Source of the DNA: Marsupella aquatica
Taxonomy: Eukaryota > Plantae > Marchantiophyta
Assembly: GCA_973895155.1 (NCBI GenBank)
Contig: OZ316893.1
Span: 16,584,645 to 16,648,644, forward strand
Direction: 5' to 3'
Length of the DNA stretch: 64,000 nt
Below, piece after piece: positions 3,835 to 63,915 of this stretch. The notes beneath the pieces were generated by a model that searched no databases, was not told the origin of the DNA, and saw only the letters and a list, made by a program, of their open reading frames with translations. Within the stretch, counting starts at the first letter, position 1, and every line of letters starts with the position of its first letter. The position numbers and the translations under genes are program-made.

Positions 3835-4188
3835 ATAACTAACCGAGAGCTTCTTTTACTACTTGATCCCAGCCCTGCTGGTGCACTAAAAACTTGCTAA
3901 GAAGGCCCTAAGCTCCCCGCTGCCCAGGTACTTATCCTAGCAGTGGATCCGCCTAATTCCTTGCAGCGTAAGCCTAATCTATCCTAACTGAAATCTACCT
4001 ATGTACAACAAGGCAGGAGCACAAGTGTTGCTCTTACCAGCGGATCTGCAATCCCACTAATCTAAGTGTCAGGGCCGCCTCCTGGTCCTGATCCTAATTC
4101 TAAACTTGGAGATCTGAGCCCGCCCTGCCCACTCACGCCTCCTCCCTCCACGTTGGCCCTCCTTAAAAGGAGCGGCCCTCCACCACCG

Positions 4189-6270
4189 TCATGGTAGCGG
4201 TGGCTGATCCTCCATGGACGCCCCCAACGCTTCCTCCGCAGCCACTGCCGTAGGTCCGTCCTCTGACAGATTACCTACCCCGGACCGAGTCAACTCTCCA
4301 TCGGCCTGACTTGGTCCACCCTCGGCTTTGGCCTCAGCATCGGCCACGGCCATGGCCTCCGATATGGCTACGGCCTCCCTGGCCTGCTCTAGTGGTGGAT
4401 CCAGTACACCGGCTTCATCACTATTTGTTCCGGCTTTAGCCTTGCCATCCCAGCCTTCTAGGACAGTTGGATCCTTTGCCGTGACCCTGCCTAAGGTTGG
4501 TGCCGGGTTTACCTCCTTGGTTACGACGGCTTGAGAAGCCGCATTACTCCCTGACCCAAAAGGTTTACGCTTCTTCTTCTTCCCTGTTTCGGTAGCTGGT
4601 CCCTTCCCCTTGCCACTTACTTCCGACATCAGTGCGAGTGTCGCGGCTTGTCCTTCGGCCAGTACTACCCCTGGCAACTTGGTTGCCCCGATTGGAGTTG
4701 GAACTGATGAAGCCAAGCACTTAAATATTGCAGCTTGTTTCTTCAGCCGCTCCATTTGATTGTTGGCCCGCCGCTGTAAGTTCTCCATCTTCCTTGTGCT
4801 TTCTTCCAACTCCTCCTGCGTTTCGTCCAGGTCCTTGCACGCCTCCTCCAACTCCTTCTGGGCTTCCTCCAATTCCCTCTGGGCTTCCTCCAATCCCTTC
4901 TTTAAGGTAGCCCTCTCCTCCTGGGTTGCTCTTAGCTCCTTGTCAAGCTCCGTTATGACCTCAGACTCCATTTTGTTCATCTTGGCATAAGTCTGATCAA
5001 GCTGGTTGTCTTTCTCACGCAAGTCGGCCTTGAAGCTGGCCGTCAGGGATGCAAGCTCCTGCTGTAGCACAATAATCCCTTGATAGGATTTCCCTAACTC
5101 GGCCTCCTTCTGCTCAAGAGCTCCGCGGATATCCTCAAGCTCCCCCTTCAACGCCCTCTCCTTCCTCTGGGTCTCCGCCATGGCCCAATTGTTGGTTGCT
5201 ATGTGGGCCTCCTTTGCGTCCCTCAGCTCCCGCTTCCATTTCTCCCTTTCCTTGACCGCATCGGCCAACTCCCCTTGGGTCCGAGTCAGTTTATCCTTGA
5301 TAATCTGATTATCAGACTGAGCGGTATCCAGCTGCCCCTGCATGATGTTTAGCTCATGCCGCTTAATCCGTAGCTTATCTTGGGCTTTCTTGGCCACCTT
5401 CAGGTCCTCTTCCTTGGCTTCCTTCTCTCTAAGTCGTCGGATGACCTCGTCCTTCTTTCTTCTCTCCAAAGCCACCGCTTCTTCCAATCGGCGTTTTTCC
5501 AACATCTCCCTCTAGAAAAAGGGTCCCTGCTCCAACTCCTCCCCAAAGATGTTGAGCGCAAGTTCCCCACACATCTCCCCGTACTCCATGGCTCTTTCTT
5601 TAGCATAGGTGGAGTGAGTAGTAGTCATCGGCATCAACCACCGCGGCCTTTGTTCCCAAGCCGCCTTTCGGATTTCTTCTATCATGGCTGGAGGGCTGCT
5701 TCATTTTTCTGCAAGCCGCTGGATGTCCTCTGGCCATTCTCCCCCAGGTAAATCCTTCTCCCTAGCCAGGGCTGCCTCCTCTTCTTCCCTGAGTCACTCC
5801 TGAAACTCCTGTGCCATCTGTTTAATCCTGTCAAAGCTCGGGGGAGCGACATCTGGTGGGGGAGACTTGGGGCTGCTCTGCTAGGTGGGTCCCCTCAAAC
5901 TACTCTTGGAAGCTTGGGGATGAACCGGCCACAGGTCCTTACTCCTGGAACATGATGGTCCGACCCATAGCCGGAGTCATCATTGCCGTAGTCCTCCACC
6001 ACCTCCTCCCCGGCTTGGACTACCGACTCCCCCCACTGCTCTCCTTATCTTGTTGTGAACACGGCCTCTTGCCGATCATAACTCACAGGTCCTAGTTCCT
6101 CCTCCGACTTCCAAGCTATCTTTACCCTCTGTTTACCGCAAACAGGAGCTTTAGGCTGCTCTCCCTCGGCTTTGGGACTCGAGGCTCCTACATACATTTG
6201 AACCCCCGGCTCGTGTTCTGGCCTCCTTCTTTCCTTGGCTCCGATAAAGGGGTTTCCCCTCATGAGTCAG
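4189..6270 (-). pseudogene. 3' part of element E ORF: long coiled coil plus low-complexity tail (ORF 4189-5505 plus upstream stop-broken frame)
   Basis: Heptad-rich E/K/L/A sequence; KKKKRK NLS-like motif; premature stops upstream. Continues across the element A insertion to 21099-22666. Confidence 0.6.
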
Positions 6271-7381
6271 TGTCACTTGCCTCTCCAACGGTTAATACGT
6301 GCAAACCGCACTTTTCTTCGCTTAAACCGTTGGTATCGTATTACGGGGTCGTGGAGGGACGCTATTTGGATTCTTTTCACACCAGGATGAGTATTTTGGT
6401 TTCCGCTCCCGGAAATGTAGGTTTTGATCAAGTCTACCGACTACCCTCACCCCACAGCTTTTGATCAAGTCCTGCCGACTACCCCACTACACCTTCACTC
6501 GGAGTCACCCAAAGAGTGCTGTCACCACCCCTACTCACAAGGCCGACTCAAACCAAGCAAGTTTCTTCAAATCATAGAACGGGAGAACACAATTCGGAAA
6601 GCGAAAAAGGGAGAAGGAACACACAACAAAAGCCCATCAAGTCAAATGTACAGATCCATATCTCTTGGGAAAAACGATACACATTGCATGAGTAACCCGG
6701 CCTCCTGCCGTCTACTCAACTCCTGCCTCTCCGGACAATGAGTATGGCTCCCCCTCACTACTCTGAACACGCTTTCAAACTCCTCAGGCTCCACTCTATC
6801 CCTCCTTGCTAACTTCACACTGAGTCCCCCTAACTACTTCGGGGCTATCCCCCTAAATACTGAAAAATCACACCAAAGCACCCCTCACAGGGTCACAACG
6901 GTGGCGGCTACCCTAGCGGCGCCGCTAAAACCTTGCACTAAGAGAAATCCTTAAACTGAAGAGGAGCATGCGGCACACACATGCTGCTAAAACCCTAAAC
7001 CCAAAACAAGGGGGCCGACGGTGCCTTCGACGGCGCCCCAACAGTACACGTGAACCCTGAAAGTGAGAGGCACCCCAAAATGGCCGAAACTAGGTGCCCT
7101 TCCAAGTGCACACCTGAGCTCACCCCTGGATAGCTCTTCTTTTCCTGCTTCCGAATCACTAAGTCGCTCCCTCAACGGACTTCAGACGCCTGAGTTATGG
7201 CCGTTTCCGTACCGCAAAAACATAAGTTCTCCAGGCCATAACTTGCTCATCCTGGCTCCGTTTGAGGAGCGCCGCCTCTTGTTGGAATCAGCTCCGCGAG
7301 CTCATCCCAACAAGCCCATGAGTGACCCCCCACTAAAATGTTGGAAATCTGGAGGCCGTACACCCACGTCCGTACGCCTAT

Positions 7382-9238
7382 CTAATCCTCCTCTTCTTCT
7401 TCGCTCTCGGTGCCCGGACTTGTGCCCCGTGAGTGGTCCTCCTCCTCATCACTCACAGGAGTGAGTGCCACCGTACTTTTCTTCTTCTTCGACGGAGTAC
7501 TCTTAGTGCTGCTGCTCCCGCGCTTCCTCAAAGCAGCCAAGGCCTGCCACGCCTTGATGTACCCCTCACCAATTGTGTCCTTCCAGAGGGTAGCCTCTTC
7601 TCCGGACCGCAACTCCAACGGTAGAACTTGCCCCGTGGCCATGGGAGTCCCGGGGGTGACAGACCTGGGTGGCATCCCCGTACTGACCTGAGCCTCCCGT
7701 AACGATTTCCGTACCTCCCGGAGCTTCTTCTCCAAGCTCTTACTCTTCTCCTGACTCTTCTTGGCTCCATCCAACAAGGGTCCATACTTCCCACTAACCT
7801 CCTTCACCACCATCTCGATAGCTTGGGAGATCACATCCGGGGAAAGTGTGGAGCCAGGTGTGCCGGGACTCTTCCATTTCCCTAGACTCAGGGCCTCACT
7901 TCTCTTCGCTCGTGTCTCAAAGGCTGCCACCTGACTCCGTAGTGCTCCCACCTGGTTCCTCCACTCCATCACTTCTCCAGAATTTTGCTTCTCTTTGGCC
8001 AATGCTTGCCTCAACGCTCCTACTTCTTCTGCTTCCTTGGCCTTGGTGGACAAAGCTCCCTTCAAGTTGGTGATCTCTACGTGAGCTGCATTGATGTGCC
8101 TGACCTTCTCATGAATGGTCTGCTCCTTGGTCTTGATCACCTCCTTCAGTGACAGGATGCTCTGCTCTAACGTCTCTACTTTGACTGTGGCGTGCTTGAG
8201 AGACTCCCTCAATGCGTGGACTAGCTTGAGTCCCTCGTGGACTCCCTCTCTGAAATCCCGTAGCTCTGCCAAGTAAACATCCGGAATGTTGTATTCCAGA
8301 GGCTGTTTCGGATCTCCCACGAGTGATTCAAGCCACTCCAATGTGCAATCATCCTCCTGGTTCTCTTCTTCTCTATTATCCTCCCCACCAGCAGACAATG
8401 ATTCCTCCGTGAGCTTCCCTAAAACGGTAGTGGCAATACTCCGGATCTCCGTGGTGAGAGATGATCCCGTGTCTTCATGCCCCGGAGAACCAATCAACCC
8501 TTCTGCCCTGGCCAATACAAATGACCCCATCAAATGTACAGCCCCACCTGGTTTCACACTCCCGGGCTCAGCGGCCAATAGCTTCTTCAATCCGTAGCAC
8601 CACCATCCGTACACATGGGCTGGGTAGTTCTTGATGTCCATAGCTACCACGAAATGCTCCTCATTCAGCACTCCGGATTGCACGTTGCCAAGAACCCGTT
8701 GATGCACCTTGGCCAGGAAGCCCTTATACTCAACATCCTTGACAGCAGAAAGAGGGATGGCGGTGGTGGAGGTAGGATTGGTCACCCAAGTGGCCACCAT
8801 TTTCAACGTGAGTTCTCCCCTGATATTCCGAGGTGTGAATGAGAATTTCTGATTCTCAAGAAACAATAGCTTAGCCAACTCCACATGGGGCACTACACGT
8901 TTGAGACATTCAAAGTAGATTCCCTCCGTTCGGAACTCCATCCCGGCCTCAATGTCCCAGCTCTTCCCTGAAGGGATGGTAATCTCCACCTTCATGAATT
9001 CTGTAAGCCCGGTGGCTTGGAAAATGTTCCGACAATCCTCCATCACCTTGGTGGAGGTCTTGGGATAAATTCGACGAAAAATCTTCCTACCCACCGGTGA
9101 GGAACCCGCTGCCAATCCCGTGCTCATCATAACTTCTCTCTCTTCCCTTTCCCGTGTAATCCGAGTCTCCACGTAGTCACGGTAAGCAGCCTTGTATCTC
9201 CGAATGCGTGACGCACTAAACTCTGGTTGATCTAGCAT
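7382..9238 (-). CDS. 618-aa LTR-embedded protein (plant-transposon/Athila ORF2-like N-terminal domain, coiled coil, basic NLS, acidic tail), copy in 3' LTR
   Basis: Uninterrupted ATG-to-stop ORF, same sense as gag-pol, entirely inside the LTR. Motifs GLTEFM and LAKLLFL; coiled coil at ~aa330-520; SKKKKS; EEEEED terminus. Confidence 0.85.
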   Translation of the reverse strand: MLDQPEFSASRIRRYKAAYRDYVETRITREREEREVMMSTGLAAGSSPVGRKIFRRIYPKTSTKVMEDCRNIFQATGLTEFMKVEITIPSGKSWDIEAGMEFRTEGIYFECLKRVVPHVELAKLLFLENQKFSFTPRNIRGELTLKMVATWVTNPTSTTAIPLSAVKDVEYKGFLAKVHQRVLGNVQSGVLNEEHFVVAMDIKNYPAHVYGWWCYGLKKLLAAEPGSVKPGGAVHLMGSFVLARAEGLIGSPGHEDTGSSLTTEIRSIATTVLGKLTEESLSAGGEDNREEENQEDDCTLEWLESLVGDPKQPLEYNIPDVYLAELRDFREGVHEGLKLVHALRESLKHATVKVETLEQSILSLKEVIKTKEQTIHEKVRHINAAHVEITNLKGALSTKAKEAEEVGALRQALAKEKQNSGEVMEWRNQVGALRSQVAAFETRAKRSEALSLGKWKSPGTPGSTLSPDVISQAIEMVVKEVSGKYGPLLDGAKKSQEKSKSLEKKLREVRKSLREAQVSTGMPPRSVTPGTPMATGQVLPLELRSGEEATLWKDTIGEGYIKAWQALAALRKRGSSSTKSTPSKKKKSTVALTPVSDEEEDHSRGTSPGTESEEEEED

Positions 9239-9651
9239 CCATGCATCCCGAAATCAATTTCTCAATCACCAATCCCGTCACCCGTGGCAATGTCAATTCC
9301 CTGGCCCGAAACAGCCCCCGTAGCCCGATCACTTAAATTCTCTCAATTTCCCGTCACTACTCCGTGCGGCCGCCACTAATGCCTGGAAGAATGACGCCAG
9401 CAAGCCCCACTAATCCACCATGAAAGAGAGAGCTTCAAAAATAATTAGAATCTGGAGAGAGCTTCCGGCAAGAGAGAGAAGAACCCCGTTTTTGCTTTCG
9501 GCAATGAGAGGGTCGTGCAAAAGGAAGAGGGAAAGAAAAAGGAAGGAAAAAAAAATAGAACCGAAAAAACTCCTGGCGCCTTCGCCATGCGCCCCGGCCC
9601 ATTTCTCGGGCCTTACCCTTGCGTCCTCCTGCGCGCGGCCCTATGCAGGGC

Positions 9652-10034
9652 GCGCGGCCATTCCTCCCGGCTCGCGGGAGGCCCTTCAACTCCCCCCCGC
9701 TCGCGTGATCCTCCCAGCTCGCGGGAGGCCCTTTAACTCCCCCCCGCTCGCGTGATCCTCCCAGCTCGCGGGAGGCCCTTTAACTCCCCCCCGCTCGCGT
9801 GATCCTCCCAGCTCGCGGGAGGCCCTTTAACTCCCCCCCGCTCGCGTGATCCTCCCAGCTCGCGGGAGGCCCTTTAACTCCCCCCCCCCCCGCTCGCTTG
9901 CGCTCCTTCAGCTCGCGGAGCCTCATTAATTGCCCGGGCACGCAGCCCTATGGGCTCGCGAGGCAGCCCCTTCAGCTCGCGGAGCCCCATTAATCGCCCG
10001 GGCACGCAGCCCTATGGGCTCGCGAGGCAGCCCC
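9652..10034. repeat. GC-rich minisatellite in 3' LTR: 47-bp unit x4 (plus a degenerate copy), followed by a 64-bp unit x2
   Basis: gctcgcgtgatcctcccagctcgcgggaggccctttaactccccccc starts at 9699, 9746, 9793, 9840; ttcagctcgcggagcc... starts at 9907 and 9971. Confidence 0.9.
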
Positions 10035-10361
10035 TCTTTCTCTCGGACGGCCACTAATGGGACTCGCCCTCCTGAGGAGGGATTTATTTAAAAAAAAACC
10101 CCCCCCTCTCCTGACTTTGCAATGGGGGTCTCAACAATAGCTCTTGAAGCAAAACGGTAAGTCCTATGGGGCTGGTCCTGGCTAGTTTCAAGGTCCCAAA
10201 ATATTTGCCCACTTAGGTCGCCGCAAATCTTAGAACTATTATGAGAGAAAGAATATAAAGTCACCTGGGGCATCATCAACCTATAATGACGGAATTAACT
10301 AAAAATTAAAAAATGGCTTATTTACATTGACTATTAACAAGGTATCGGCCTTTGCAACCAG

Positions 10362-12851
10362 TTATGTGTGACTTCCCGTGACGGGGTACCCGTCACATAG
10401 CTCCTCTCTTAATTGCGAAGCGCCCCCGCGAGCACCATACTCTTCCTCCGTGTAGTACTTCTTTAGGCGCTCTTGATTGATCCGTGTGTTGAGTAGTTGC
10501 CCCTCCAATGTCTTGAGTTGAACCGAGCCGTTGGAGTAGACGGCATCCACTACGTAGGGTCCCATCCACCGTGTATGCAACTTCCCGGGGAAATGCATGA
10601 AGCGGCTATCGTAGAGGAGCACCAAATCTCCCTCCTCAATGGACACACGACGGAGACGGGAATCGTAATGTGACTTGCGTTTGCCTTGCTCCTGCTCCGT
10701 ATGTGTCAAAGCCTCTTCTCGTGTCTCCGTGAGTTGCTCCAACTGTTGGATCCGTGAAGTGACACTTTCTTCTGCCCCTTCCCTTTCCCGTGTTAGGATT
10801 CGAATGGTTGGAACCTCAAATTCCACCGGCACAAGAGAGTGTTGTCCAAACACAAGGAAATAGGGGCTGTGGCCCGTGGTAGTCTTGTGAGCCAGGTTGT
10901 AAGCGTAAGTGGCAGCCAACAACTTCAAATCCCAATCGGTCTTGTGAGCGGATACCGTTTTGTTGAGGATCTTGCCCATGATCCCGTTGGCTCTCTCAGT
11001 GAGCCCGTTGGCTCGAGGGTGGTACGGAGTGGTCTTCCTATGTGAGATCAAGTAGTTCTCCGTCAAACGTTCAATCGTATGATTGAGGAAGTGAGTACCC
11101 CTGTCACTTACCAACTCCAATGGTGGACCAAATCGTGTAAAAATCTGCTCATACAAAAAACGTGCCGTGGTGTTGGCATCATCCTTGGCAGTAGCTCGGG
11201 CCTCCACCCACTTGGTGGCATAGTCCGTTGCAAGAATGATGTAGCGCTTCCTCCCTCTTCGTGTGATGGGAGTGAAAGGGCCAATGAAGTCCACCCCCCA
11301 CTTCTCAAAGGGTGCAAGAGGAAGTATGGGCACCAATGGGTGTCGTGAGGAGGGCCCTGGTTTGCCTTGACGCTGGCACGGATCACATCGCTGGATGTAC
11401 CGGTGTACATCCCGAAAGAGAGTTGGCCACCAATATCCAGCATCTAGTATTTTCCTTGCGGTGGTCTCCCGTGCAAAGTGGCCACCAGCTTCCTCCTCAT
11501 GTAATGCTGCCATGACTGTACGTATCTCCGCTTCCTCCAAACAACGACGAAGTCGGCCATCCATGCCGTACTTGTGAAGTACTCCCTTCACAAGCAAGTA
11601 GGGACCTGTCTTACGCAAAAACACTGCTGCTCTCTCCGGGCCCAAACGTGAGGGAACTCTAGCCGTGCGGAGAAATTCCAAAATTTCTCCATACCAAGTA
11701 GTGGCCTCTGTATTCACGCTGAACACTTCCTCATCCGGGAACCGATCATCAATCTCCTGGGAGTCAGATGCTCCCTCAATACGGGAGAAGAAGTCTGCAT
11801 TGCTATGACTCTTCCCCGATCTTACTCTCACCTCATAGTTGAACTCTTGTAGCAACAAAACCCAACGTGCAATTCTCCCGGACAGATCTGGCTTGTTGAC
11901 CATGTATTTCAAGCTGTTGTGATCCGTGTGGAACACAACCTTGTACCCCAACAAATAATGACGATACTTCTTACAAGCGTAGATGATACCAAGTGCCTCC
12001 CTATCGGTGGGTGAGTAGTTTTTCTCTGCCGGGGCCAACTGCCTACTGGCAAAGTAGATGGGATGGTCTCTTCCATCATCATCTAACTGACTCAAAACGG
12101 CACCGATGCAAAATCCTGATACGTCTACGTAAACATGGAATTCCTTATTCCAATTGGGCGTAATGAGCACGGGGGCCTCTAGCAATCGTTTCTTCAATTC
12201 ATCAAAAGCAGCCTGACGGGAAGGAGTAGGTTCAAACTCACTTCCTTTTTTCAACATGGAAGTGAGTGGCATGGCTACCTTGGCAAAGTCTTTGATGAAG
12301 CGTCGGTAGTAGCCAACACACCCCAAGAACCCTCTCACTTCCTTCACATTCTTGGGAAATGAGACTGCTACCCACACGGCGACCTTCTCACGATCAACTT
12401 CAATCCCTCGTGCAGACACTTTGTGGCCCAATAGGATTCCCTCCTCAATTCCAAAGAAACATTTCTCCGGATGCAGCTTCAGGCAAGTCTCCCGGCACCG
12501 CTGAAAAGTCAACCGTAAGTGTTCCGGATGCTTGACTCGTTTGCCGTAGACAGCAAAGTCATCAATAAAGATCTCCAAGAACCTGCGTAAAAAGTCATGA
12601 AATATATTCATCATGAGCCGTTGGAACATGCCAGGGGCATTGCACAACCCAAAAGGCATTCTCCGGAATGCAAAAATCCCCCACTCTGTTGTGAAAGCCG
12701 TCTTGAGTTGGTCCTCCTCCCGTATCCAGATTTGGTTGTACCCAGAGTAGCCATCCAAGAAGCTGTATATCTCCCAACCTGCTACCATGTCCAACACGAT
12801 ATCCGTGAACGGTAGCGGGTAGTGATCCTTCTTGGTCGCATCATTCAACTT
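10362..12851 (-). CDS. pol: pol C-terminal part: RT, RNase H, integrase (in frame with upstream ORF across one TGA)
   Basis: DHYPLP, FLDGYSGYNQI, MPFGLCNAP, FIDD (RT); VDVS, TDHNSL, NADFFSR (RNase H); H..H..CDPC zinc finger, WGVDFIGP, SDRGTHF, NGLTER, WMGPY (integrase). Confidence 0.95.
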   Translation of the reverse strand, partial: KLNDATKKDHYPLPFTDIVLDMVAGWEIYSFLDGYSGYNQIWIREEDQLKTAFTTEWGIFAFRRMPFGLCNAPGMFQRLMMNIFHDFLRRFLEIFIDDFAVYGKRVKHPEHLRLTFQRCRETCLKLHPEKCFFGIEEGILLGHKVSARGIEVDREKVAVWVAVSFPKNVKEVRGFLGCVGYYRRFIKDFAKVAMPLTSMLKKGSEFEPTPSRQAAFDELKKRLLEAPVLITPNWNKEFHVYVDVSGFCIGAVLSQLDDDGRDHPIYFASRQLAPAEKNYSPTDREALGIIYACKKYRHYLLGYKVVFHTDHNSLKYMVNKPDLSGRIARWVLLLQEFNYEVRVRSGKSHSNADFFSRIEGASDSQEIDDRFPDEEVFSVNTEATTWYGEILEFLRTARVPSRLGPERAAVFLRKTGPYLLVKGVLHKYGMDGRLRRCLEEAEIRTVMAALHEEEAGGHFARETTARKILDAGYWWPTLFRDVHRYIQRCDPCQRQGKPGPSSRHPLVPILPLAPFEKWGVDFIGPFTPITRRGRKRYIILATDYATKWVEARATAKDDANTTARFLYEQIFTRFGPPLELVSDRGTHFLNHTIERLTENYLISHRKTTPYHPRANGLTERANGIMGKILNKTVSAHKTDWDLKLLAATYAYNLAHKTTTGHSPYFLVFGQHSLVPVEFEVPTIRILTREREGAEESVTSRIQQLEQLTETREEALTHTEQEQGKRKSHYDSRLRRVSIEEGDLVLLYDSRFMHFPGKLHTRWMGPYVVDAVYSNGSVQLKTLEGQLLNTRINQERLKKYYTEEEYGARGGASQLREELCDGYPVTGSHT
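10398..10410 (-). promoter_or_regulatory. Polypurine tract of element A
   Basis: Minus strand AAGAGAGGAGCTA immediately before TGTGAC of the 3' LTR. Confidence 0.85.
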
Positions 12852-15800
12852 TCAAAAATCTTGGCACACCCGTATTTTCACCTTCCCGTCTGGCCCCTTT
12901 TTCTTGGGCACGATTACGATGGGTGACACCCACTCACTATGCATGACCGGATAAATGAATCCTGCATCCAACAAACGGTCAATCTCCTCCTTCACCATGA
13001 GTGAGTATTTGGGGTTGAGGCGGTATTGGCGTTGCCTCACAGGTCGTGCTCCTGACATCAGGTCAATGCTGTGCTCACCAAACTCAGGTGGCACTCCTTT
13101 CAAATCTTGGTGGCTCCACGCAAATACGTCTTGGTACTCTTTCAACAATTCCTGAATCGTGCGTTGCTCCGTAGCATCCAACTTACTACCAATGTTGAGT
13201 GTCTTGCCCTCACCCACTTCCACCTTTGTGTACTGCTCCGGCCTGATCACGTCCAACTTGTTGCGTGTCTCCTCATCAAAGGTTTCTTCCAACCGTGCGA
13301 GCCTCATCCCTCCATACACCGGTGCATCACTCTCCTCCTGGTCTGGTCGGGATGGAGGTGGATCCTTTGTCACATGGGCCATTATTTCTTCAACGTCAGA
13401 TTCTTTGTAATGTGACAATAGCTCCTCTCTAAAGTCATCATCCAGGATGTCATTCAAAAACTGCTCTCTTTGCTCATCATCAAACATGATCGTGTGGGCT
13501 TGCATTTCCACCTCCTCGGGGTGATCCTCTGCCTCCCTATCATGAATCTCTAGAGGTTCAGCCTCCACAATTTTGCTTCGCTCGTCTTCCATCTCTTCTA
13601 GAACAGCGTGCACTTGGCTAACTGATTCCTCTACTGCATGCTCTTGAGTAGCAACTCCGGGGCCAAAAACATCTTCCTCCGTGAGGTGAGAAATCAGTTT
13701 CACCATGTATACTTCATCCTCGTCTTCATCTGAGGTGACCTCTGAATCATATTCCTCCTCCATAGTCGTAGTCTCCCCGTGAGGTGACTCCGCTGACCAT
13801 GGAATAGTGATAGTGGGGATACCAAACCGAAACTGCCGTTTGCCCCAATCACTTGTGACCTTGGCCACATACAACCATGGCCTGCCAATTAAAATGGGAA
13901 AACCGTACGGCCGAACGGGTCGCATCACCAAATAGTTGAGGGGGAAAGATTTTCCCCCAATCATTGTTGGAATCTTGGTGAGACACCCCAACGGCACCAC
14001 CCGTGCACCATCAGCCAACCTCATGGCACGTGCCGGTGGTTCTAACTCTGTATACCCCAACCGGTTTGCCGTCTCCTCAGTCATGATGTTGACTCCCGAG
14101 CCCCCGTCCACCGGTACAAACCGTATTGCACATCCATTGATGTCCACCGTGAGTTCTGGGGCACCCAAATCCTCCGTGACCCAGTTGACTTGTATGGGGT
14201 CAGCCCCAACTTTGGGTAACCTTCTTCTACGTCTCCTCCTCATGAGAATCTCCTTGACTTGGCGACGGTATAGGGAGCTATCCCGTAATAGTTGACCAAT
14301 TGTGGCACTGACTGGGCAATCCAGAATGTCTTGAGCAATGTTGTACGCGGTTGCAGGAGGTATGGGTGGGATGACCTCTTCTCCCGGTTTCCAACGAACA
14401 ACCCTCTCCTCCGCTTTCTTTCTGGCCTTTGCCTCCTCCATGTCTTTGTCAATGGCCGCTTGCATGGCTTGTGCTTCTAGCTCCTCCAACTGCTTACGTA
14501 CCTCTTCTCCCACCTTCGGATAGAACAACTTGGGGTTGTCCCGATCAAAGTCACTATCCTCCATAGGTGGCACCTCCGGTTCGTGTGAGGTACCCGATGT
14601 GGAAGCTTGATGCACCTCCTTGTACTTCTGCTTGAGCTCGGACTTGCCCTTCTTTTTGCCGGATCGAGTGGAGACTCGGTAACAAGAGTAATGCCTTCTC
14701 TCCTCGTCGCTGTCTTCCTCCGGTAGATTCTCAGCATGAGTCCACTCATGACTTGGGGGTGAGGGGTTAGCAACTTCAACTTCCGTAGATGTTGCAACAA
14801 CAACCACCGGTATCTCAACAACTGGAGATACTACAACGACTAGCGGTACCACCTCCTCCGTTATGGTGGTCATCCTTTGCTTGGGAATGTTCACTACGGT
14901 TTCTTCTCTTCTAGTGATTAGAGGGGTGTCGACTGCTTCCGTGGTGAGAAAGTTGACGCTAGCTTCTTTCAGAGGAGGTGGCGGCCCCTTCTTCTCTTGT
15001 GCCCCAATCGGTTGAGCCTTGAACGCCTCCAAGGTTGGGCAGTGTGGTGCAAGATGACCCTCCCCCTTGCATAGTTGACACAGCCGGGCAAAATCTCCAT
15101 TGCCTTGACGGGTGGGCTCTGGGCACACATTAGCGTAGTGGCCCGCCACTCTACAATTGTAACAAATAGGGATCTTCCTCACTCCAGGGTACGGTGGTCG
15201 ATTCCCTGGGTTAGCGTTGGGATAGTTGGAGTATGCGGGTGCTCCGGCGTTTGTTGAAACTCCATGAATGCTCCGTGGTCCCGGGTTGAGAGGTTGTACA
15301 CTATACACGTTGGCCTCTGGTGGCTCCTCCATGAAGTACTCTATTGGCCCTTCCGCTGCATATGAAGGATTTGAGTAGCTTGCCCCCTCAACATCCTCCT
15401 CCCGTACTTGGAAAACCTTGGCTGGTTCTCCCGCTGGGCACTCCTTCGGGGCATGACCAAACTTCATGCACTTGGTGCACCACACATTGGCTCTCTCCAC
15501 CGGAACTTTTCTCCTCTCAGGTTTGAGTCCGGCAAAATGTACTTTCAACGCTTTCATTTGCTCCGTCAGCTCATCATATCTGGCCTCTTGCTCCTTCAGG
15601 CGTCTTGCCGTAGACAATGGTGTAACGGCCACCGTGGGTAGTATCACTTCACGGTGAGAGGACTTCTTGACTTTCTTTGACAACTTCTTCTTCTTCCTCC
15701 TTCGTCTTTCAGCTTCTGACTCCGTAGTGTCTGACTCTGTAGTACTCTCAGAATCCTCAGATTCATCACTACTATCTGAATCAGATCCACTCGACTCCTC

Positions 15801-16760
15801 ACTGGAGGAACTGTCAACCGGCTTCAGCTTCTTTCTTCGGCAACGCTTGCTTGTGGCATCAGCTGCGGTGTATGACTCCGCTGCTGCAATAGCTTCAGCC
15901 AATGTGGTTGGCTTGGCTTGACGTACAAAGAACCCCATCTTGCTTGGTAGGGCAGCCACAAACCAGGCTTGACGCATAGCATCATCGGTACGGGCTTGGA
16001 TCCGACGTACCAGCTTTTGGAACCTTTGCAAAAACCTCCGTAATGACTCCTTCTTCTTCATCCTGAGTTGGCCCACCTTTAATAGTGAGGTGGCCTCCAC
16101 TCCTATGGATCTGAACTCCTTCAAGAAGGCTTGCTTGAACAGAGCCCAATCAGCTTTCACGTTGGCCAACAACGAAATGAACCATGGACCTGCCTCCCCT
16201 CTCATCATTCCAGGAATGATAGTGAGCTTATGTGCAGACTCCCCATTAGCTTCGGCAATCCCTTCAAACTCCTCAATCCATTCGTCTGGATCATCCTTTG
16301 GTCTCCCCTTGAAGGGTACGTACTGAACACGGGTACGTTGTGCAGCTGCCATCGGTGCAGCCGGTGCCTGTATCAACACAGGTGGTAATGGCGCTTGTTG
16401 GGCCACCGGTAACAGCACCGATGATAGGTGTGAGATGATTTGTGGCAATGCAGTGAGCTCTGGGATCAGATTTTGTAACTCAGACTGCACCAACACAAAG
16501 GGCTCTCCTTCTTCTCGCTCGTGATCTATGTCTGGCTCTTCGTCTGGGCATATGGCCTCATTACGTTGAGCCTCTTCCTGTTGCACACCAACTTGTTCTT
16601 CCAGCACCAGTGGCAACCTCCTCTCTTCTGCAAGCCGTAAGCGTTCTTCGGCAGCAACTCGTCGTCTGGTCCCAATCCAAGAGGGCCCCCCTTCTAGCTC
16701 TGATCTTGGGGTACGTGTGTGTTGGGGACTTCCTCTACCTCCCCTTCTCCCTCTCGGCAT
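12852..16760 (-). CDS. gag-pol: gag-protease-RT N-terminal part of the polyprotein
   Basis: Retrotransposon gag region (DDPDEWIEEF); three CCHC knuckles (CTKCMKFGHAPKEC, CYNCRVAGHYANVC, CQLCKGEGHLAPHC); protease VDGGSGVN and ILIGRPWL; RT start WVSPIVIVPKK..VCQDF. Confidence 0.95.
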   Translation of the reverse strand: MPRGRRGGRGSPQHTRTPRSELEGGPSWIGTRRRVAAEERLRLAEERRLPLVLEEQVGVQQEEAQRNEAICPDEEPDIDHEREEGEPFVLVQSELQNLIPELTALPQIISHLSSVLLPVAQQAPLPPVLIQAPAAPMAAAQRTRVQYVPFKGRPKDDPDEWIEEFEGIAEANGESAHKLTIIPGMMRGEAGPWFISLLANVKADWALFKQAFLKEFRSIGVEATSLLKVGQLRMKKKESLRRFLQRFQKLVRRIQARTDDAMRQAWFVAALPSKMGFFVRQAKPTTLAEAIAAAESYTAADATSKRCRRKKLKPVDSSSSEESSGSDSDSSDESEDSESTTESDTTESEAERRRRKKKKLSKKVKKSSHREVILPTVAVTPLSTARRLKEQEARYDELTEQMKALKVHFAGLKPERRKVPVERANVWCTKCMKFGHAPKECPAGEPAKVFQVREEDVEGASYSNPSYAAEGPIEYFMEEPPEANVYSVQPLNPGPRSIHGVSTNAGAPAYSNYPNANPGNRPPYPGVRKIPICYNCRVAGHYANVCPEPTRQGNGDFARLCQLCKGEGHLAPHCPTLEAFKAQPIGAQEKKGPPPPLKEASVNFLTTEAVDTPLITRREETVVNIPKQRMTTITEEVVPLVVVVSPVVEIPVVVVATSTEVEVANPSPPSHEWTHAENLPEEDSDEERRHYSCYRVSTRSGKKKGKSELKQKYKEVHQASTSGTSHEPEVPPMEDSDFDRDNPKLFYPKVGEEVRKQLEELEAQAMQAAIDKDMEEAKARKKAEERVVRWKPGEEVIPPIPPATAYNIAQDILDCPVSATIGQLLRDSSLYRRQVKEILMRRRRRRRLPKVGADPIQVNWVTEDLGAPELTVDINGCAIRFVPVDGGSGVNIMTEETANRLGYTELEPPARAMRLADGARVVPLGCLTKIPTMIGGKSFPLNYLVMRPVRPYGFPILIGRPWLYVAKVTSDWGKRQFRFGIPTITIPWSAESPHGETTTMEEEYDSEVTSDEDEDEVYMVKLISHLTEEDVFGPGVATQEHAVEESVSQVHAVLEEMEDERSKIVEAEPLEIHDREAEDHPEEVEMQAHTIMFDDEQREQFLNDILDDDFREELLSHYKESDVEEIMAHVTKDPPPSRPDQEESDAPVYGGMRLARLEETFDEETRNKLDVIRPEQYTKVEVGEGKTLNIGSKLDATEQRTIQELLKEYQDVFAWSHQDLKGVPPEFGEHSIDLMSGARPVRQRQYRLNPKYSLMVKEEIDRLLDAGFIYPVMHSEWVSPIVIVPKKKGPDGKVKIRVCQDF

Positions 16761-16977
16761 CCCATTGAGACCTGCATTCCAAACTTACACCAATGTCTCA
16801 GAAAGCAATATTTGTAAACATCAACCGTCGCACGATGCGTTGTGGTTGACGTACAATAACAAAGTAACCAACAAACTTCTCACGTATCAACCGTCGCAAG
16901 TTGCGTTGTGGTTGATAGGTTTGAACTCCCAATAGACGTAGCTCCCCTCCTTCGTGTCGTCAAACAAGAAGAAGGAT

Positions 16978-16995
16978 TCCCCGGCAGCGGCGCCA
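16978..16995 (-). promoter_or_regulatory. Primer binding site of element A (tRNA-Asp type)
   Basis: TGGCGCCGCTGCCGGGGA, one mismatch to the Athila-type tRNA-Asp PBS TGGCGCCGTTGCCGGGGA; 20 nt from the LTR end. Confidence 0.85.
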
Positions 16996-18126
16996 AAAAC
17001 AAAAGACCACACTTATGTCACTTGCCTCTCCAACGGTTAATACGTGCAAACCGCACTTTTCTTCACTTAAACCGTTGGTATCGTATTACGGGGTCGTGGA
17101 GGGACGCTATTTGGATTCTTTTCACACCAGGATGAGTATTTTGGTTTCCGCTCCCGGAAATGTAGGTTTTGATCAAGTCTACCGACTACCCTCACCCCAC
17201 AGCTTTTGATCAAGTCCTGCCGACTACCCCACTACACCTTCACTCGGAGTCACCCAAAGAGTGCTGTCACCACCCCTACTCACAAGGCCGACTCAAACCA
17301 AGCAAGTTTCTTCAAATCATAGAACGGGAGAACACAATTCGGAAAGCGAAAAAGGGAGAAGGAACACACAACAAAAGCCCATCAAGTCAAATGTACAGAT
17401 CCATATCTCTTGGGAAAAACGATACACATTGCATGAGTAACCCGGCCTCCTGCCGTCTACTCAACTCCTGCCTCTCCGGACAATGAGTATGGCTCCCCCT
17501 CACTACTCTGAACACGCTTTCAAACTCCTCAGGCTCCACTCTATCCCTCCTTGCTAACTTCACACTGAGTCCCCCTAACTACTTCGGGGCTATCCCCCTA
17601 AATACTGAAAAATCACACCAAAGCACCCCTCACAGGGTCACAACGGTGGCGGCTACCCTAGCGGCGCCGCTAAAACCTTGCACTAAGAGAAATCCTTAAA
17701 CTGAAGAGGAGCATGCGGCACACACATGCTGCTAAAACCCTAAACCCAAAACAAGGGGGCCGACGGTGCCTTCGACGGCGCCCCAACAGTACACGTGAAC
17801 CCTGAAAGTGAGAGGCACCCCAAAATGGCCGAAACTAGGTGCCCTTCCAAGTGCACACCTGAGCTCACCCCTGGATAGCTCTTCTTTTCCTGCTTCCGAA
17901 TCACTAAGTCGCTCCCTCAACGGACTTCAGACGCCTGAGTTATGGCCGTTTCCGTACCGCAAAAACATAAGTTCTCCAGGCCATAACTTGCTCATCCTGG
18001 CTCCGTTTGAGGAGCGCCGCCTCTTGTTGGAATCAGCTCCGCGAGCTCATCCCAACAAGCCCATGAGTGACCCCCCACTAAAATGTTGGAAATCTGGAGG
18101 CCGTACACCCACGTCCGTACGCCTAT

Positions 18127-19983
18127 CTAATCCTCCTCTTCTTCTTCGCTCTCGGTGCCCGGACTTGTGCCCCGTGAGTGGTCCTCCTCCTCATCACTCA
18201 CGGGAGTGAGTGCCACCGTACTTTTCTTCTTCTTCGACGGAGTACTCTTAGTGCTGCTGCTCCCGCGCTTCCTCAAAGTAGCCAAGGCCTGCCACGCCTT
18301 GATGTACCCCTCACCAATTGTGTCCTTCCAGAGGGTAGCCTCTTCTCCGGACCGCAACTCCAACGGTAGAACTTGCCCCGTGGCCATGGGAGTCCCGGGG
18401 GTGACAGACCTGGGTGGCATCCCCGTACTGACCTGAGCCTCCCGTAACGATTTCCGTACCTCCCGGAGCTTCTTCTCCAAGCTCTTACTCTTCTCCTGAC
18501 TCTTCTTGGCTCCATCCAACAAGGGTCCATACTTCCCACTAACCTCCTTCACCACCATCTCGATAGCTTGGGAGATCACATCCGGGGAAAGTGTGGAGCC
18601 AGGTGTGCCGGGACTCTTCCGTTTCCCTAGACTCAGGGCCTCACTTCTCTTCGCTCGTGTCTCAAAGGCTGCCACCTGACTCCGTAGTGCTCCCACCTGG
18701 TTCCTCCACTCCATCACTTCTCCAGAATTTTGCTTCTCTTTGGCCAATGCTTGCCTCAACGCTCCTACTTCTTCTGCTTCCTTGGCCTTGGTGGACAAAG
18801 CTCCCTTCAAGTTGGTGATCTCTACGTGAGCTGCATTGATGTGCCTGACCTTCTCATGAATGGTCTGCTCCTTGGTCTTGATCACCTCCTTCAGTGACAG
18901 GATGCTCTGCTCTAACGTCTCTACTTTGACTGTGGCGTGCTTGAGAGACTCCCTCAATGCGTGGACTAGCTTGAGTCCCTCGTGGACTCCCTCTCTGAAA
19001 TCCCGTAGCTCTGCCAAGTAAACATCCGGAATGTTGTATTCCAGAGGCTGTTTCGGATCTCCCACGAGTGATTCAAGCCACTCCAATGTGCAATCATCCT
19101 CCTGGTTCTCTTCTTCTCTATTATCCTCCCCACCAGCAGACAATGATTCCTCCGTGAGCTTCCCTAAAACGGTAGTGGCAATACTCCGGATCTCCGTGGT
19201 GAGAGATGATCCCGTGTCTTCATGCCCCGGAGAACCAATCAACCCTTCTGCCCTGGCCAATACAAATGACCCCATCAAATGTACAGCCCCACCTGGTTTC
19301 ACACTCCCGGGCTCAGCGGCCAATAGCTTCTTCAATCCGTAGCACCACCATCCGTACACATGGGCTGGGTAGTTCTTGATGTCCATAGCTACCACGAAAT
19401 GCTCCTCATTCAGCACTCCGGATTGCACGTTGCCAAGAACCCGTTGATGCACCTTGGCCAGGAAGCCCTTATACTCAACATCCTTGACAGCAGAAAGAGG
19501 GATGGCGGTGGTGGAGGTAGGATTGGTCACCCAAGTGGCCACCATTTTCAACGTGAGTTCTCCCCTGATATTCCGAGGTGTGAATGAGAATTTCTGATTC
19601 TCAAGAAACAATAGCTTAGCCAACTCCACATGGGGCACTACACGTTTGAGACATTCAAAGTAGATTCCCTCCGTTCGGAACTCCATCCCGGCCTCAATGT
19701 CCCAGCTCTTCCCTGAAGGGATGGTAATCTCCACCTTCATGAATTCTGTAAGCCCGGTGGCTTGGAAAATGTTCCGACAATCCTCCATCACCTTGGTGGA
19801 GGTCTTGGGATAAATTCGACGAAAAATCTTCCTACCCACCGGTGAGGAACCCGCTGCCAATCCCGTGCTCATCATAACTTCTCTCTCTTCCCTTTCCCGT
19901 GTAATCCGAGTCTCCACGTAGTCACGGTAAGCAGCCTTGTATCTCCGAATGCGTGACGCACTAAACTCTGGTTGATCTAGCAT
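18127..19983 (-). CDS. 618-aa LTR-embedded protein, copy in 5' LTR
   Basis: Same as 7382-9238 except GKWKS/GKRKS and LAALR/LATLR. Confidence 0.85.
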   Translation of the reverse strand: MLDQPEFSASRIRRYKAAYRDYVETRITREREEREVMMSTGLAAGSSPVGRKIFRRIYPKTSTKVMEDCRNIFQATGLTEFMKVEITIPSGKSWDIEAGMEFRTEGIYFECLKRVVPHVELAKLLFLENQKFSFTPRNIRGELTLKMVATWVTNPTSTTAIPLSAVKDVEYKGFLAKVHQRVLGNVQSGVLNEEHFVVAMDIKNYPAHVYGWWCYGLKKLLAAEPGSVKPGGAVHLMGSFVLARAEGLIGSPGHEDTGSSLTTEIRSIATTVLGKLTEESLSAGGEDNREEENQEDDCTLEWLESLVGDPKQPLEYNIPDVYLAELRDFREGVHEGLKLVHALRESLKHATVKVETLEQSILSLKEVIKTKEQTIHEKVRHINAAHVEITNLKGALSTKAKEAEEVGALRQALAKEKQNSGEVMEWRNQVGALRSQVAAFETRAKRSEALSLGKRKSPGTPGSTLSPDVISQAIEMVVKEVSGKYGPLLDGAKKSQEKSKSLEKKLREVRKSLREAQVSTGMPPRSVTPGTPMATGQVLPLELRSGEEATLWKDTIGEGYIKAWQALATLRKRGSSSTKSTPSKKKKSTVALTPVSDEEEDHSRGTSPGTESEEEEED

Positions 19984-20395
19984 CCATGCATCCCGAAATC
20001 AATTTCTCAATCACCAATCCCGTCACCCGTGGCAATGTCAATTCCCTGGCCCGAAACAGCCCCCGTAGCCCGATCACTTAAATTCTCTCAATTTCCCGTC
20101 ACTACTCCGTGCGGCCGCCACTAATGCCTGGAAGAATGACGCCAGCAAGCCCCACTAATCCACCATGAAAGAGAGAGCTTCAAAAATAATTAGAATCTGG
20201 AGAGAGCTTCCGGCAAGAGAGAGAAGAACCCCGTTTTTGCTTTCGGCAATGAGAGGGTCGTGCAAAAGGAAGAGGGAAAGAAAAAGGAAGGAAAAAAAAT
20301 AGAACCGAAAAAACTCCTGGCGCCTTCGCCATGCGCCCCGGCCCATTTCTCGGGCCTTACCCTTGCGTCCTCCTGCGCGCGGCCCTATGCAGGGC

Positions 20396-20730
20396 GCGCG
20401 GCCATTCCTCCCGGCTCGCGGGAGGCCCTTCAACTCCCCCCCGCTCGCGTGATCCTCCCAGCTCGCGGGAGGCCCTTTAACTCCCCCCCGCTCGCGTGAT
20501 CCTCCCAGCTCGCGGGAGGCCCTTTAACTCCCCCCCGCTCGCGTGATCCTCCCAGCTCGCGGGAGGCCCTTTAACTCCCCCCCCCCCGCTCGCTTGCGCT
20601 CCTTCAGCTCGCGGAGCCTCATTAATTGCCCGGGCACGCAGCCCTATGGGCTCGCGAGGCAGCCCCTTCAGCTCGCGGAGCCCCATTAATCGCCCGGGCA
20701 CGCAGCCCTATGGGCTCGCGAGGCAGCCCC
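20396..20730. repeat. GC-rich minisatellite in 5' LTR: 47-bp unit x3 plus 64-bp unit x2
   Basis: 47-bp units start at 20443, 20490 and 20537. Confidence 0.9.
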
Positions 20731-21098
20731 TCTTTCTCTCGGACGGCCACTAATGGGACTCGCCCTCCTGAGGAGGGATTTATTTAAAAAAAAACCCCCC
20801 CCTCTCCTGACTTTGCAATGGGGGTCTCAACAATAGCTCTTGAAGCAAAACGGTAAGTCCTATGGGGCTGGTCCTGGCTAGTTTCAAGGTCCCAAAATAT
20901 TTGCCCACTTAGGTCGCCGCAAATCTTAGAACTATTATGAGAGAAAGAATATAAAGTCACCTGGGGCATCATCAACCTATAATGACGGAATTAACTAAAA
21001 ATTAAAAAATGGCTTATTTACATTGACTATTAACAAGGTATCGGCCTTTGCAACCAGTTATGTGTGACTTCCCGTGACGGGGTACCCGTCACAGTCAG

Positions 21099-30116: not shown

Positions 30117-33100
30117 TGTGACATGGGTTATGTGTCACTTAATCGAGTGTAGGTCCTAGATTAGGACTTATACGGTCATTAGGACCGTAGCCGTAGCGTA
30201 GAGTAGTAGGAATAGCCGTCTTTGCCATTATGAGTAGATTAGGAGTAGGTTAGTTGACTAAATGATTATGAATTAAGGGAAGGAAATTATTACGATTGGC
30301 CGAGGTACCATGGCGGCGGCGGAGTAAAATTCCGTTAGGAGATCACGCTTGGACCGAGACACTCAACTTTGGGCCATTATCAACGACCAAAACGGCCTCA
30401 CCTTCTCACGCTCGGGCTCACCCTAGCACCTCCATAAGAGCTGAGTTGATGGCACCGCAGCCCATTTGCTCATTCATACCTTTTAGAATTCGCGGACACT
30501 GCCATTCACTCTTGCCTTTTGCTCGAATCGAGCTAACTTTTACGAGGAAATTATCGAAGGGTAAGAGCGGATTGTGGTGGGATTTAGTCAGGGCGAGTAA
30601 GGCCTCCACTAGCAAGCAAAACTGCCGGGCGGGGGCACAAACTCAACAAACCAGACTACAAAGGTTAGTATGACCCTTACAGCCTTGGGATTTTGGACCT
30701 TGTTTAGCGAGGTAGGTGCTAAGTTCTCTGAGACTTACCGGTGCTCTTGCCCCGAGAAAGCCGCTTACAAACAAAGATACGCGAAGTTGGTGGCCAAGGT
30801 AGCATAGGTTAATTGTGAGAAGACAGCCATCACCAGGGATTCGACCTACAACAAGCTGCGGGACTACATCACCAAGCTATATCTCAGCAAGGAGGGGCTT
30901 AGATCGGTAGCAGAGGCGATTCTTGAAGTCCCCGCAAAGTTCTTTAGGCTGAAGGGCAACCAGAGGCTGACTCAAGCAGAGTTTGACAAGATCCCGGGTT
31001 ACATCGACCAGCAGATTGCAGTTGAAAAGTGCCAAGAAGACATCAACAGACAACAGGAAGCGGCGCGTAATCTTACGTTCCTCGGGGAAAGCTCTAACGC
31101 CTTCAACTGGGATATGGCTACCCCGACGCCACCCCCAGCCCCTCAGCCAATGACCATCGGCGTACCACCAAACCGGTCCCAAGTCCGTCCCGTGAACAAC
31201 ACCGAGTGTTCCTCGAGTTCCGCGCATGTTAGTCCGCAACTTGAGCAACGTTGTCAGAAGCGGGCAAGGATGACGCCGGCCCCCAAACTGACGGTGCAAA
31301 CCAACGCTGCCCCTGTACCTGCCCCGGCCAACCCGCCAACTAACCACTCTTGACGATCCTCGGATAATCAATAGCCCAACTTATTACAGGTAATCCGCAT
31401 CCTCGAGGTAGTCTGGACAGCGATCAAGAAACTCGACCACGCGGATTATCTCAAGGAGCATCAGTTGGAGCAAGTTGCTCACTTGCAATGGAGACCTAAC
31501 GCAGCCGGGCCAAGGGAGATTTATGAGTTCATCTCCAATTTTGACATCGATGCGGCAACCACCAAGGTTTCAAGGCAGACCTTATCACTTACGGAGTATC
31601 GGTTGGCACAGATCTTTTGTCTGCCAACCGGGCCGGTGTCAGTTGAACTCCAAATTTGGGATAAGGTGTATACACCCCGACACTTCAAACCCGAGGGTAA
31701 GACAGACAACGGGTACAAGCAGGGGTCATGCACCAACTTAGTCTGTATGGAGCAGCTTAACTTCATATGGACTACCCTACACATAATTGAGCCACGGTCC
31801 AAGATCTCCCTCTGTACGATCGTACAGGTGGAATAGTACAAATGGCAGAACTAGGCCCAACTCTTTTGCCGTAGGTTCTCGGAGGAGCTTAGGCGGGCTC
31901 AAGGAGGTATGTCTATCGGGGAAAGGACCTACCTAGGAAGTCACATTGCCATCATCCTCGCCTAGTACAAGGCACGGCGGGAGGCCAAGGGAAAGAATAT
32001 GGCCACCTCAGCCCCGACTAGCATCGCCCCCGCTACGAAGGAGGCTACCCCAAGCAAGCGGACCACTACGCCTTGGGAAAACCCCGAGCCCATGGCCCTA
32101 ACTAATACTCCGCCACCTCCTCCCATTGAAATCCCTCCGCCCCCTTCCGTTGAGCCTCCGCTGCCCCCAGTACAACCACCCCCAATCCCTCCACCACCTG
32201 AAGAAACCTTCCTCTCCCCATTGTAGACTACGGAGGAGCTTGCCACCCCGCCCGAGGAACCACCGGTGCCCGAGAGGATGGAGGACTACCAAGTAGCCCC
32301 GGGGAGCCTACGACCTGGTCCAGAAGTTTAGCCAAACTATGTGAGGGGAGCTAGCGACGTACATTGGGCAAGAGGTCTCGGCGTACTTCCAACCAACCTT
32401 CTTCATGTTAGAGCACCAACCACGGATCGTAAGCCGCTTGGAGGAAGAACTCATCACAAAGGGGAACAAGATCAGGGCCTCCAAATGCTAGTAGAACACC
32501 TCGAAGAGGAGGCTACCACCCGCCGTGAAGAGTTAGTCCGCACCGTTGAACAATGGGAAGGACTCAACCAGGAGTTGAGCGTGGCGTAAGCAGATCTCAA
32601 GAAGTTGGATGACACTGTGCTTCAGTTGCGCTCAGAATCCTTGGCTCGGGTTACCAGCCTGACCGACCTCAACAACCAATTCCTGCAGGCAGCTCAGCAG
32701 GTGGCTAGTCTCTCCGCCGAGCGAGATAAATTGTTGGCGTAGAACCAGATCCATCGTGACTCCATTGGCCAGCTCAGCCTAGAGGTAGCACGGCTCTAGA
32801 CCGAGGCCGATGAAGCTACAAACAAGGCAGAGGAGGCGGTACGGGATAACAAGGCCTTGCAGGACCGCATTACCCTGCTCGTAAGCCAACGGGCAAGACT
32901 TGGACCCACTTCTGATCAAGGCGGCTCAAGGTCTTGCCCCGACAAGGGGACAAACCCTGGTCCGACCACAACACACACATAAGGGGTGGTTAGCAGAGGG
33001 TGTGAGCAAGCATCGCGAGAGGCAGTTGAGTCAACAACATCTTTTTGATTAAGCTTAACGATAGAATAGCTGTCATTAGGCGCCGATTAGCGGCGCAATA

Positions 33101-43235: not shown

Positions 43236-43375
43236 GGAGTAGGAGTCCCTCATATTTTTGTATAAATCACAATTTTGTAATAAATGTGATCCTTGAACTA
43301 ACTCATCTTGTCATGGTTGGTCGCAGTTGAAGTGATTGTTGTTTCCTGCTGCGTGGGGTGTGACTGTGAATCTAC

Positions 43376-63888: not shown

Positions 63889-63897
63889 TGAGATTTT

Positions 63898-63915
63898 TGG
63901 CGCCGCTGCCGGGGA
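63898..63915 (+). promoter_or_regulatory. Primer binding site of element D (tRNA-Asp type)
   Basis: TGGCGCCGCTGCCGGGGA, identical to the PBS of element A. Confidence 0.85.

Follow-up and report, generated by a model that had tools for sequence, protein, structure and literature searches.

Introduction

Can a plant retrotransposon keep a complete protein-coding gene inside its long terminal repeats (LTRs), and how would the gene have come to lie there? The question is raised by a gypsy element of the liverwort Marsupella aquatica, found in a stretch of 64,000 nucleotides (the window) from contig OZ316893.1 of assembly GCA_973895155.1 (positions 16,584,645 to 16,648,644, forward strand), in which an open reading frame (ORF) for a protein of 618 amino acids (aa) lies wholly within each LTR. 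LTRs are treated as non-coding, and pipelines seek extra ORFs only upstream or downstream of gag-pol; they would mask a gene in the LTR or count it twice. We read the locus, at a probability of roughly 0.55, as an Athila-like gypsy element with 4.1-kb LTRs that each carry a selected 618-aa gene, a layout that likely arose through a shift of plus-strand priming to a polypurine tract (PPT) behind pol.

Results

A complete gene in each LTR of a young element

The element lies on the minus strand, and self-BLAST of the window identified 6271-10397 and 17016-21093 as a direct repeat of 98.7% identity. Its main parts are as follows.

17016..21093, minus strand: 5' LTR, 4,078 bp, TG..CA
6271..10397, minus strand: 3' LTR, 4,127 bp, TG..CA
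6266..6270: target-site duplication (TSD) GTCAG, left
21094..21098: TSD GTCAG, right
18127..19983, minus strand: 618-aa accessory ORF, 5' LTR copy, open
7382..9238, minus strand: 618-aa accessory ORF, 3' LTR copy, open
10362..16760, minus strand: gag-PR-RT-RH-INT in a single frame, by Pfam domain order
16978..16995, minus strand: primer-binding site (PBS), a PBS-type motif 20 nt past the 5' LTR end
10398..10410, minus strand: PPT in use, abutting the 3' LTR at the pol end and preceded by the conserved CGCG-box motif of the lineage

An earlier reading made from the sequence alone (the sequence-only reading) had placed the gene wholly inside each LTR, and this placement holds: the TG..CA ends, the GTCAG TSD, the PPT and the PBS stand at the limits, and the ORF is intact in both copies. 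Within the LTR, 1,110 nt precede the start of the ORF and 1,111 nt follow its end, and the two encoded proteins differ at 2 residues. Global alignment of the LTRs gave 4 substitutions in about 4,077 aligned bases (0.1%), together with one 49-nt indel (one 47-bp tandem-array unit plus 2 nt) and one 1-nt indel. The low substitution difference therefore indicates a very young insertion.

The TG..CA LTRs, TSD, PBS, PPT and gag-PR-RT-RH-INT order are those of Ty3/gypsy. Pfam found neither aRH nor a chromodomain in gag-pol, and pol ends just past the integrase. Because the TSD is 5 bp long, aRH and chromodomain hits are absent and the PBS motif is one that we liken to the Athila PBS (tRNA-Asp), we class the element as Athila-like. 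The same motif is present at window position 63898 and in four of the related loci described below (L002, L003, L004, and L009). The gap between LTR and PBS (16996-17015) is 20 nt, compared to about 5-16 nt in relatives, and with it the cDNA end would bear an unusually long overhang for integrase trimming. The pol frame crosses the PPT and enters the 3' LTR for 12 codons (10362-10397).

The long LTR is shared by the family

Six of the 12 listed public runs (X1-X6) contain 74-93% of the words of the element. These runs bear three organism codes and many of their contigs are at least 99% alike, which close relatives, mixed samples or horizontal transfer fit equally. Four runs were mapped to 10398-21600, and depth was read from the 8 longest contigs listed for each run; such depths are rough estimates, and the library types of the runs are unrecorded. 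The ratio of LTR to internal contig depth was 2.18 in X1 (3 LTR vs 5 internal contigs) and 2.17 in X2 (5 LTR vs 3 internal contigs). Three X2 contigs within the ORF had 2.24 times the internal depth, and one X1 contig stopped exactly at the LTR edge 21093. The contigs of X5 were too fragmented to give a ratio, X4, which may stand close to the source of this DNA, held the whole ORF on a single contig with 1 difference, and X7 and X8, with patchy low-depth coverage of the ORF, were excluded as evidence of range. The focal gag-pol has an in-frame stop in RT (12852-12854), which is missing from nearly all of the family depth in three of the four runs and from about two thirds of it in the fourth.

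The LTR depth of about 2.2 times in X1 and X2 therefore means that the long, ORF-bearing LTR is family-wide, with two full LTRs per element and few solo LTRs. Since this ratio permits at most about 0.2 solo LTRs per full element, the survival of the gene in solo LTRs, which the sequence-only reading had expected, looks minor in the focal family.

The same reading had considered that the 4-kb repeat could be a recombinant or tandem artefact, and the family depth ratio of 2.17-2.18 speaks against this, as it does against a one-off or assembly artefact that carries the ORF as a passenger. The lack of a clear 2:1 depth in X3 (internal 19-66, LTR 35-69) favors an artefact and counts against a family-wide long LTR. 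On the other side stand the TSD, PPT and PBS at the exact limits, the depth in X1 and X2, the X4 contig, the selection on the ORF, and the same layout in a second element of the window (element B, below). We regard an artefact as very improbable.

The gene is under purifying selection

Four runs were mapped to the ORF at 80% likeness, and the best-supported 40 of 173 variant positions were scored. Among these 40 listed variants, 25 were synonymous, 15 were non-synonymous and none was a stop, and 23 lay at third codon positions. The synonymous share expected under neutrality is 23-30% (p 1e-7 to 2e-5), and omega was about 0.2; the variants stem from diverged subfamilies and lack independence, and each was scored on its own. 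Judged from these variants, the 618-aa ORF is under purifying selection, and the neutral evolution that had been weighed as an alternative does not fit them.

An exhaustive search found 13 homologues of the ORF at 27-62% identity, which jointly cover most of the protein. Nothing homologous to the full ORF came from the word-based protein search, whereas searching longer proteins with a profile gave 2 homologues. Four of the ten homologues looked up are named, all from Calypogeia fissa, and the profile search added one more from this species. The closest named pol relatives are likewise liverworts, C. fissa (59-74%) and Riccia sorocarpa (up to 58%). These relatives by themselves make a leafy liverwort the likely host.

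Relatives show two layouts

A metagenome scan with the pol alignment gave 217 matches, 104 of which were confirmed; 80 loci were kept, and the 12 closest with usable flanks were examined. No pol relative was found in a scan of viral contigs. In this lineage the LTR start is marked by the conserved CGCG-box, a purine run and TG. This mark stands right behind pol in the focal element, in element B, and in five of the 12 loci (L003, L004, L006, L007, and L008); an extra ORF follows the box in four of the five, one of which, L004, shows only its start (read by eye). The box stands behind the extra ORF in three loci (L002, L009, and L012), with an LTR of about 1 kb; the complete LTRs of this classic layout measure 991 bp in L002 and 1,086 bp in L009. 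The other four loci (L001, L005, L014, and L015) were left unclassed. L014 contains a 5,066-bp direct repeat (2587-14047, 99.98%) that spans the pol end and the extra ORF and may represent tandem elements or an assembly artefact.

The LTR end preceding the PBS in L003 and L004 matches, in inverted form, the LTR start that lies behind pol (first 9 nt; 12/14), and no second box follows the ORF in L006 and L007. The extra ORFs of L003, L006 and L007, which lie inside, are homologous to that of L002, which lies outside (26-32%, E 1e-16 to 1e-23). One gene family is therefore found both inside and outside the LTR. In L002 one purine run follows pol and another follows the ORF, and only the latter is succeeded by TG. 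The order of pol, spacer, ORF and 1-kb tail is constant in both layouts, and the place of the PPT box alone differs.

The window itself holds another member of the box-behind-pol group, element B, an older family whose pol is 52-71% identical to the focal pol, by segment.

30117..33978, plus strand: element B 5' LTR, 3.9 kb, right limit inferred from the CA preceding the PBS
30808-32589, plus strand: element B decayed ORF fragments, within the 5' LTR
56738..58199, plus strand: element B 3' LTR, following pol and the PPT box and truncated at 58200 by a further insertion

The decayed ORF of element B comprises a globular domain, a proline-rich linker and a coiled-coil-like end, and its 3' LTR lacks the 2.3-kb ORF-bearing middle. 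A further TG..CA stretch of about 4.2 kb (element C, 59713-63898, plus strand) ends just before a PBS identical to the focal one and contains a long broken ORF from 60197 that is 35-39% identical to the extra ORFs of L002 and L005. No PPT box was found between this ORF and the PBS. Element C is possibly a third gene-in-LTR family, whose second LTR would lie beyond the window.

In the pol trees, the box-behind-pol elements group together, along with unclassed sequences from C. fissa and ENA, and the classic layouts fall outside. This clade had an SH-aLRT of 96 in the quick tree, and SH-aLRT 94 with UFBoot 89, UFBoot 92, and FastTree 0.96 in three smaller trees. L012 was deepest when the tree was rooted with angiosperm hits. 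It is thus moderately supported by these trees and motifs that the gene-in-LTR layout is a trait of one pol clade, and that its relatives keep the ancestral internal position.

A shift of plus-strand priming may explain the layout

Priming of the plus strand at the PPT sets the left end of the LTR. In the proposed ancestor, the gene would have lain between pol and the PPT, with an LTR of about 1 kb behind it. Plus-strand priming would then have left the PPT behind the gene for another one immediately after pol, whereby the gene and its upstream region would have become U3 and been copied into both LTRs at the next round. The old 1.05-kb LTR would persist as the last quarter of the new one, holding the genomic-RNA start, R and U5. 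A single copy of the gene would stand at the 3' end of the genomic RNA, to be placed in both LTRs by reverse transcription. The sequence-only reading had argued that the gene dosage is doubled; this stands for DNA templates, and for these only.

Three further features of the LTR bear on this proposal.

20406..20731, minus strand: GC-rich tandem repeats, 64 bp x2 and 47 bp x3.8, at LTR positions of about 360-690
20197..20313, minus strand: pyrimidine-rich tract ending in CAG, upstream of the 618-aa ORF
18069..18089, minus strand: candidate relic PPT, 38 nt past the ORF stop and 1,055 nt before the LTR end (3' LTR copy 7324-7344)

The 47-bp array is x4.8 in the 3' LTR (9662-10035). By their position, the GC-rich repeats may be enhancer-like, and the pyrimidine-rich tract is a candidate for either a core promoter or a splice acceptor. 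To express the gene, the element would use a promoter within the first 1.1 kb of U3, splicing to the CAG-ended tract before the ATG, or both; the splicing route we propose resembles that of the sag gene of mouse mammary tumour virus (MMTV), which uses an acceptor upstream of its LTR ORF.

If the PPT was switched, the new LTR should end in the old one of 1 kb, and a decayed PPT should follow the ORF. The candidate relic is the best match to the PPT matrix in the entire 4-kb LTR, and only 1 of 100 shuffles was as good with the core matrix, which offers modest support for the switch. No nucleotide similarity was found between the focal LTR and the LTRs of the relatives, and alignment therefore cannot demonstrate the old LTR.

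Several points besides the depths in X3 weigh against this reading. With the full matrix, 20 of 100 shuffles equaled the relic, and the window of the core matrix was picked after the site had been seen. The hhalign comparison of the ORF N-domain with two sets of relatives' ORFs did no better than column-shuffled controls, and by BLAST the 618-aa protein had no similarity to the ORFs of L002-L012 or element B. None of the metagenome loci has two LTRs with a TSD, and their limits were inferred from motifs. The support of the box-behind-pol clade is under UFBoot 95. The last 1.1 kb of the LTR showed no TATA box, and this, together with the repeats and pyrimidine tract upstream of the ORF, suits a single upstream promoter equally.

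Such a promoter would place the ORF in R or U5 as the first cistron, with gag-pol expressed via splicing or a second start. GC-rich repeats followed by a pyrimidine tract occupy the usual place of the U3 enhancer and core promoter, and L004 has a TATA-like motif, its tail rich in CT, ahead of its extra ORF (read by eye); the TATA-less last 1.1 kb also agrees. However, this arrangement demands a minus-strand strong-stop DNA of more than 3 kb and a 618-codon ORF ahead of gag. It leaves unexplained the PPT relic and the fact that the part behind the ORF (about 1.0-1.1 kb in the focal element and in B) equals a whole classic LTR. We consider it rather unlikely.

The relic also bears on the alternative that the gene came into the LTR through recombination, or through insertion of a cassette or small element into U3, with the PPT unchanged. 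The PPT-matrix scan found no relic in four of the five other long LTR-like stretches with this layout or a possible case of it (B, C, L006, and L007), which counts against the switch and favors such entry, and the ORFs of sister families differ greatly, suggesting cassette exchange. Against it, self-BLAST found no direct or inverted repeats bounding the ORF apart from the tandem arrays, and gene order is identical in both layouts with only the place of the PPT box shifted. We hold entry by either route to be improbable. Self-priming was considered as well and rejected, as just an 8-nt complement exists within the LTR. The shift of plus-strand priming remains the reading that we prefer.

The 618-aa protein may act in the nucleus

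The protein is predicted to consist of a globular N-terminal domain (residues ~50-250), an acidic linker, coiled coils, and a basic and acidic tail. Long helices or coiled coils are predicted at residues 320-451 and 467-520, and the N-terminal domain is conserved. The sequence-only reading had described a protein with a coiled coil and a nuclear localisation signal and without an obvious transmembrane helix; as predictions, the coiled coil, basic clusters and lack of such a helix are borne out: no transmembrane helix was predicted, the maximum 19-residue hydropathy being 1.09, and basic clusters lie at 454, 571 and 584.

Pfam gave only sub-threshold coiled-coil matches for the ORF and no match for its homologues P0001, P0009, P0012 and P0134. 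The suggested link to PF20167 was found neither by Pfam nor by profile comparison, nor did the ORF or these homologues show one to PF03078 or PF10536; the PF20167 link now rests on a below-threshold structural lead. This lead comes from P0009 (27% identity over 188 residues, E 3e-15), which aligns to Transposase_32, ATHILA and plant-mobile-domain clusters at TM 0.65-0.70; these matches fall below the family-naming bar of the Atlas tool, which weighs against the assignment. For the ORF's own domain, the Atlas feature search reached 0.83-0.84, lead level only. AlphaFold produced low-confidence models (pLDDT 44 and 47), for which Foldseek against viral and PDB libraries returned no match at E <= 0.001.

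We predict that the protein is a nuclear, oligomeric accessory factor like Athila ORF1, Transposase_32 or plant-mobile-domain proteins; that it acts on the chromatin or silencing of the element is a tentative further step, falling somewhat short of an even chance. We base this on the P0009 fold lead and on three published observations. Two plant-mobile-domain proteins of the host, MAIN and MAIL1, take part in silencing, the latter being a nuclear protein (PMC5418596); nuclear localisation is predicted for a sunflower Athila 3' ORF that matches Transposase_32 (PMC11728184); and Athila-domain proteins were modelled as coiled-coil pentamers or oligomers with many host contacts (PMC13547354).

The coiled coils would also suit a protein with an env-like role in structure or movement, which would be part of particles or transport RNA or particles from cell to cell. 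Long coiled coils are suited to oligomers such as the pentamer models of Athila-domain proteins (PMC13547354), and the sense 3' ORFs of Athila have been termed env-like (PMC7264820). The absence of a predicted transmembrane segment, the three basic clusters and the nuclear prediction for the sunflower ORF (PMC11728184) argue against this role, which we hold to be unlikely.

Surroundings of the element

The focal element sits inside the decayed extra ORF of an older repeat (21419-22666 and 4189-5505, minus strand). This host repeat has much deeper coverage; the N-part of its ORF resembles the LTR ORF of element B (25%, E 1e-9), and the C-part is a long coiled coil. The LTRs of the focal element and element B both begin with a short hairpin, TGTGAC-loop-GTCAC (21071-21093 and 30117-30138). 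An 850-bp repeat (29267-30116 and 39974-40777, 87%) has a short ORF in each copy, and one copy abuts the 5' LTR of element B. At 41108-47978 (plus strand), a CACTA-type transposase (PF02992) follows ORFs with PHD-like and BRCT domains and is apparently inserted in element B.

Discussion

The paired layouts among relatives offer a natural test of how LTR boundaries move through PPT choice and how LTRs grow to 4-5 kb, and the function of Athila-type accessory proteins could well be studied in a family like this one, which is young, homogeneous and high in depth and has its gene intact. The finding alone does not reveal that function, and an LTR-borne gene is already known from MMTV. Additional ORFs of plant elements are placed internally, or merely 5' or 3' of the polyprotein, in the available parts of PMC7264820 and PMC6317226; such 5'/3' counts could conceal LTR-borne ORFs. 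No plant gypsy element with an extra ORF inside its LTR was described in the literature searched, and Steinbauerova 2011, Wright and Voytas 2002 and supplements may bear on priority.

Athila (PF03078, PF20167; PMC6317226, PMC7264820, PMC11728184) is among the nearest known systems. It shares with the focal element the 5-bp TSD, the single gag-pol frame, the lack of detected aRH and chromodomain, a PBS offset from the LTR, and a sense accessory ORF downstream of pol. The TSD of Phygy and Selgy is 4 bp, in contrast to the 5 bp of Athila (PMC6317226). Diaspora and Calypso have a tRNA-Asp PBS with a 5-bp offset, compared to 20 nt here (PMC1142308). The extra ORF of Athila is internal, between pol and the PPT, whereas the focal ORF lies in the LTR, twice, with the PPT abutting pol. 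The 4.1-kb LTR, an accessory protein without a Pfam match and a pol on a long branch set the focal element further apart; the best named angiosperm pol matches are 42-43% identical, in trees that lack REXdb, Phygy, Selgy and Tat references. The L012 ORF gave a weak PF20167 match (E 3e-5, below cut-off).

Ogre, Retand, Grande, RIRE2 and Retrosat2 (PMC7264820, PMC6317226, PMC3485330, PMC5418596) likewise have conserved accessory ORFs of unknown function, some of them nuclear and including the plant mobile domain, and LTRs of 3-5 kb occur among them. Their extra ORFs are described as internal and often antisense, unlike the focal ORF, and Tat-group elements carry an aRH, which was not found in the focal element by Pfam.

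MMTV sag (PMC3026287) is the precedent for this layout, with a complete accessory ORF in the LTR that makes the LTR unusually long and a splice-acceptor-like tract just upstream of it. MMTV, however, infects vertebrates as a retrovirus, its LTR measures 1.3 kb, its gene serves an immune function, and there is no sequence relation; the expression of the focal gene is only proposed. As a doubtful extension, we put forward that a whole clade of bryophyte gypsy elements made its LTR a self-contained gene through an upstream move of the plus-strand primer: each LTR, solo LTRs included, would be a promoter-ORF-poly(A) unit making a nuclear protein for anti-silencing or chromatin targeting that acts in trans on the family. 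If true, the coding sequence would be five times longer than most LTR leftovers, and the self-contained LTR gene would be a plant counterpart of the LTR gene of complex retroviruses, with the ancestral layout still alive in relatives.

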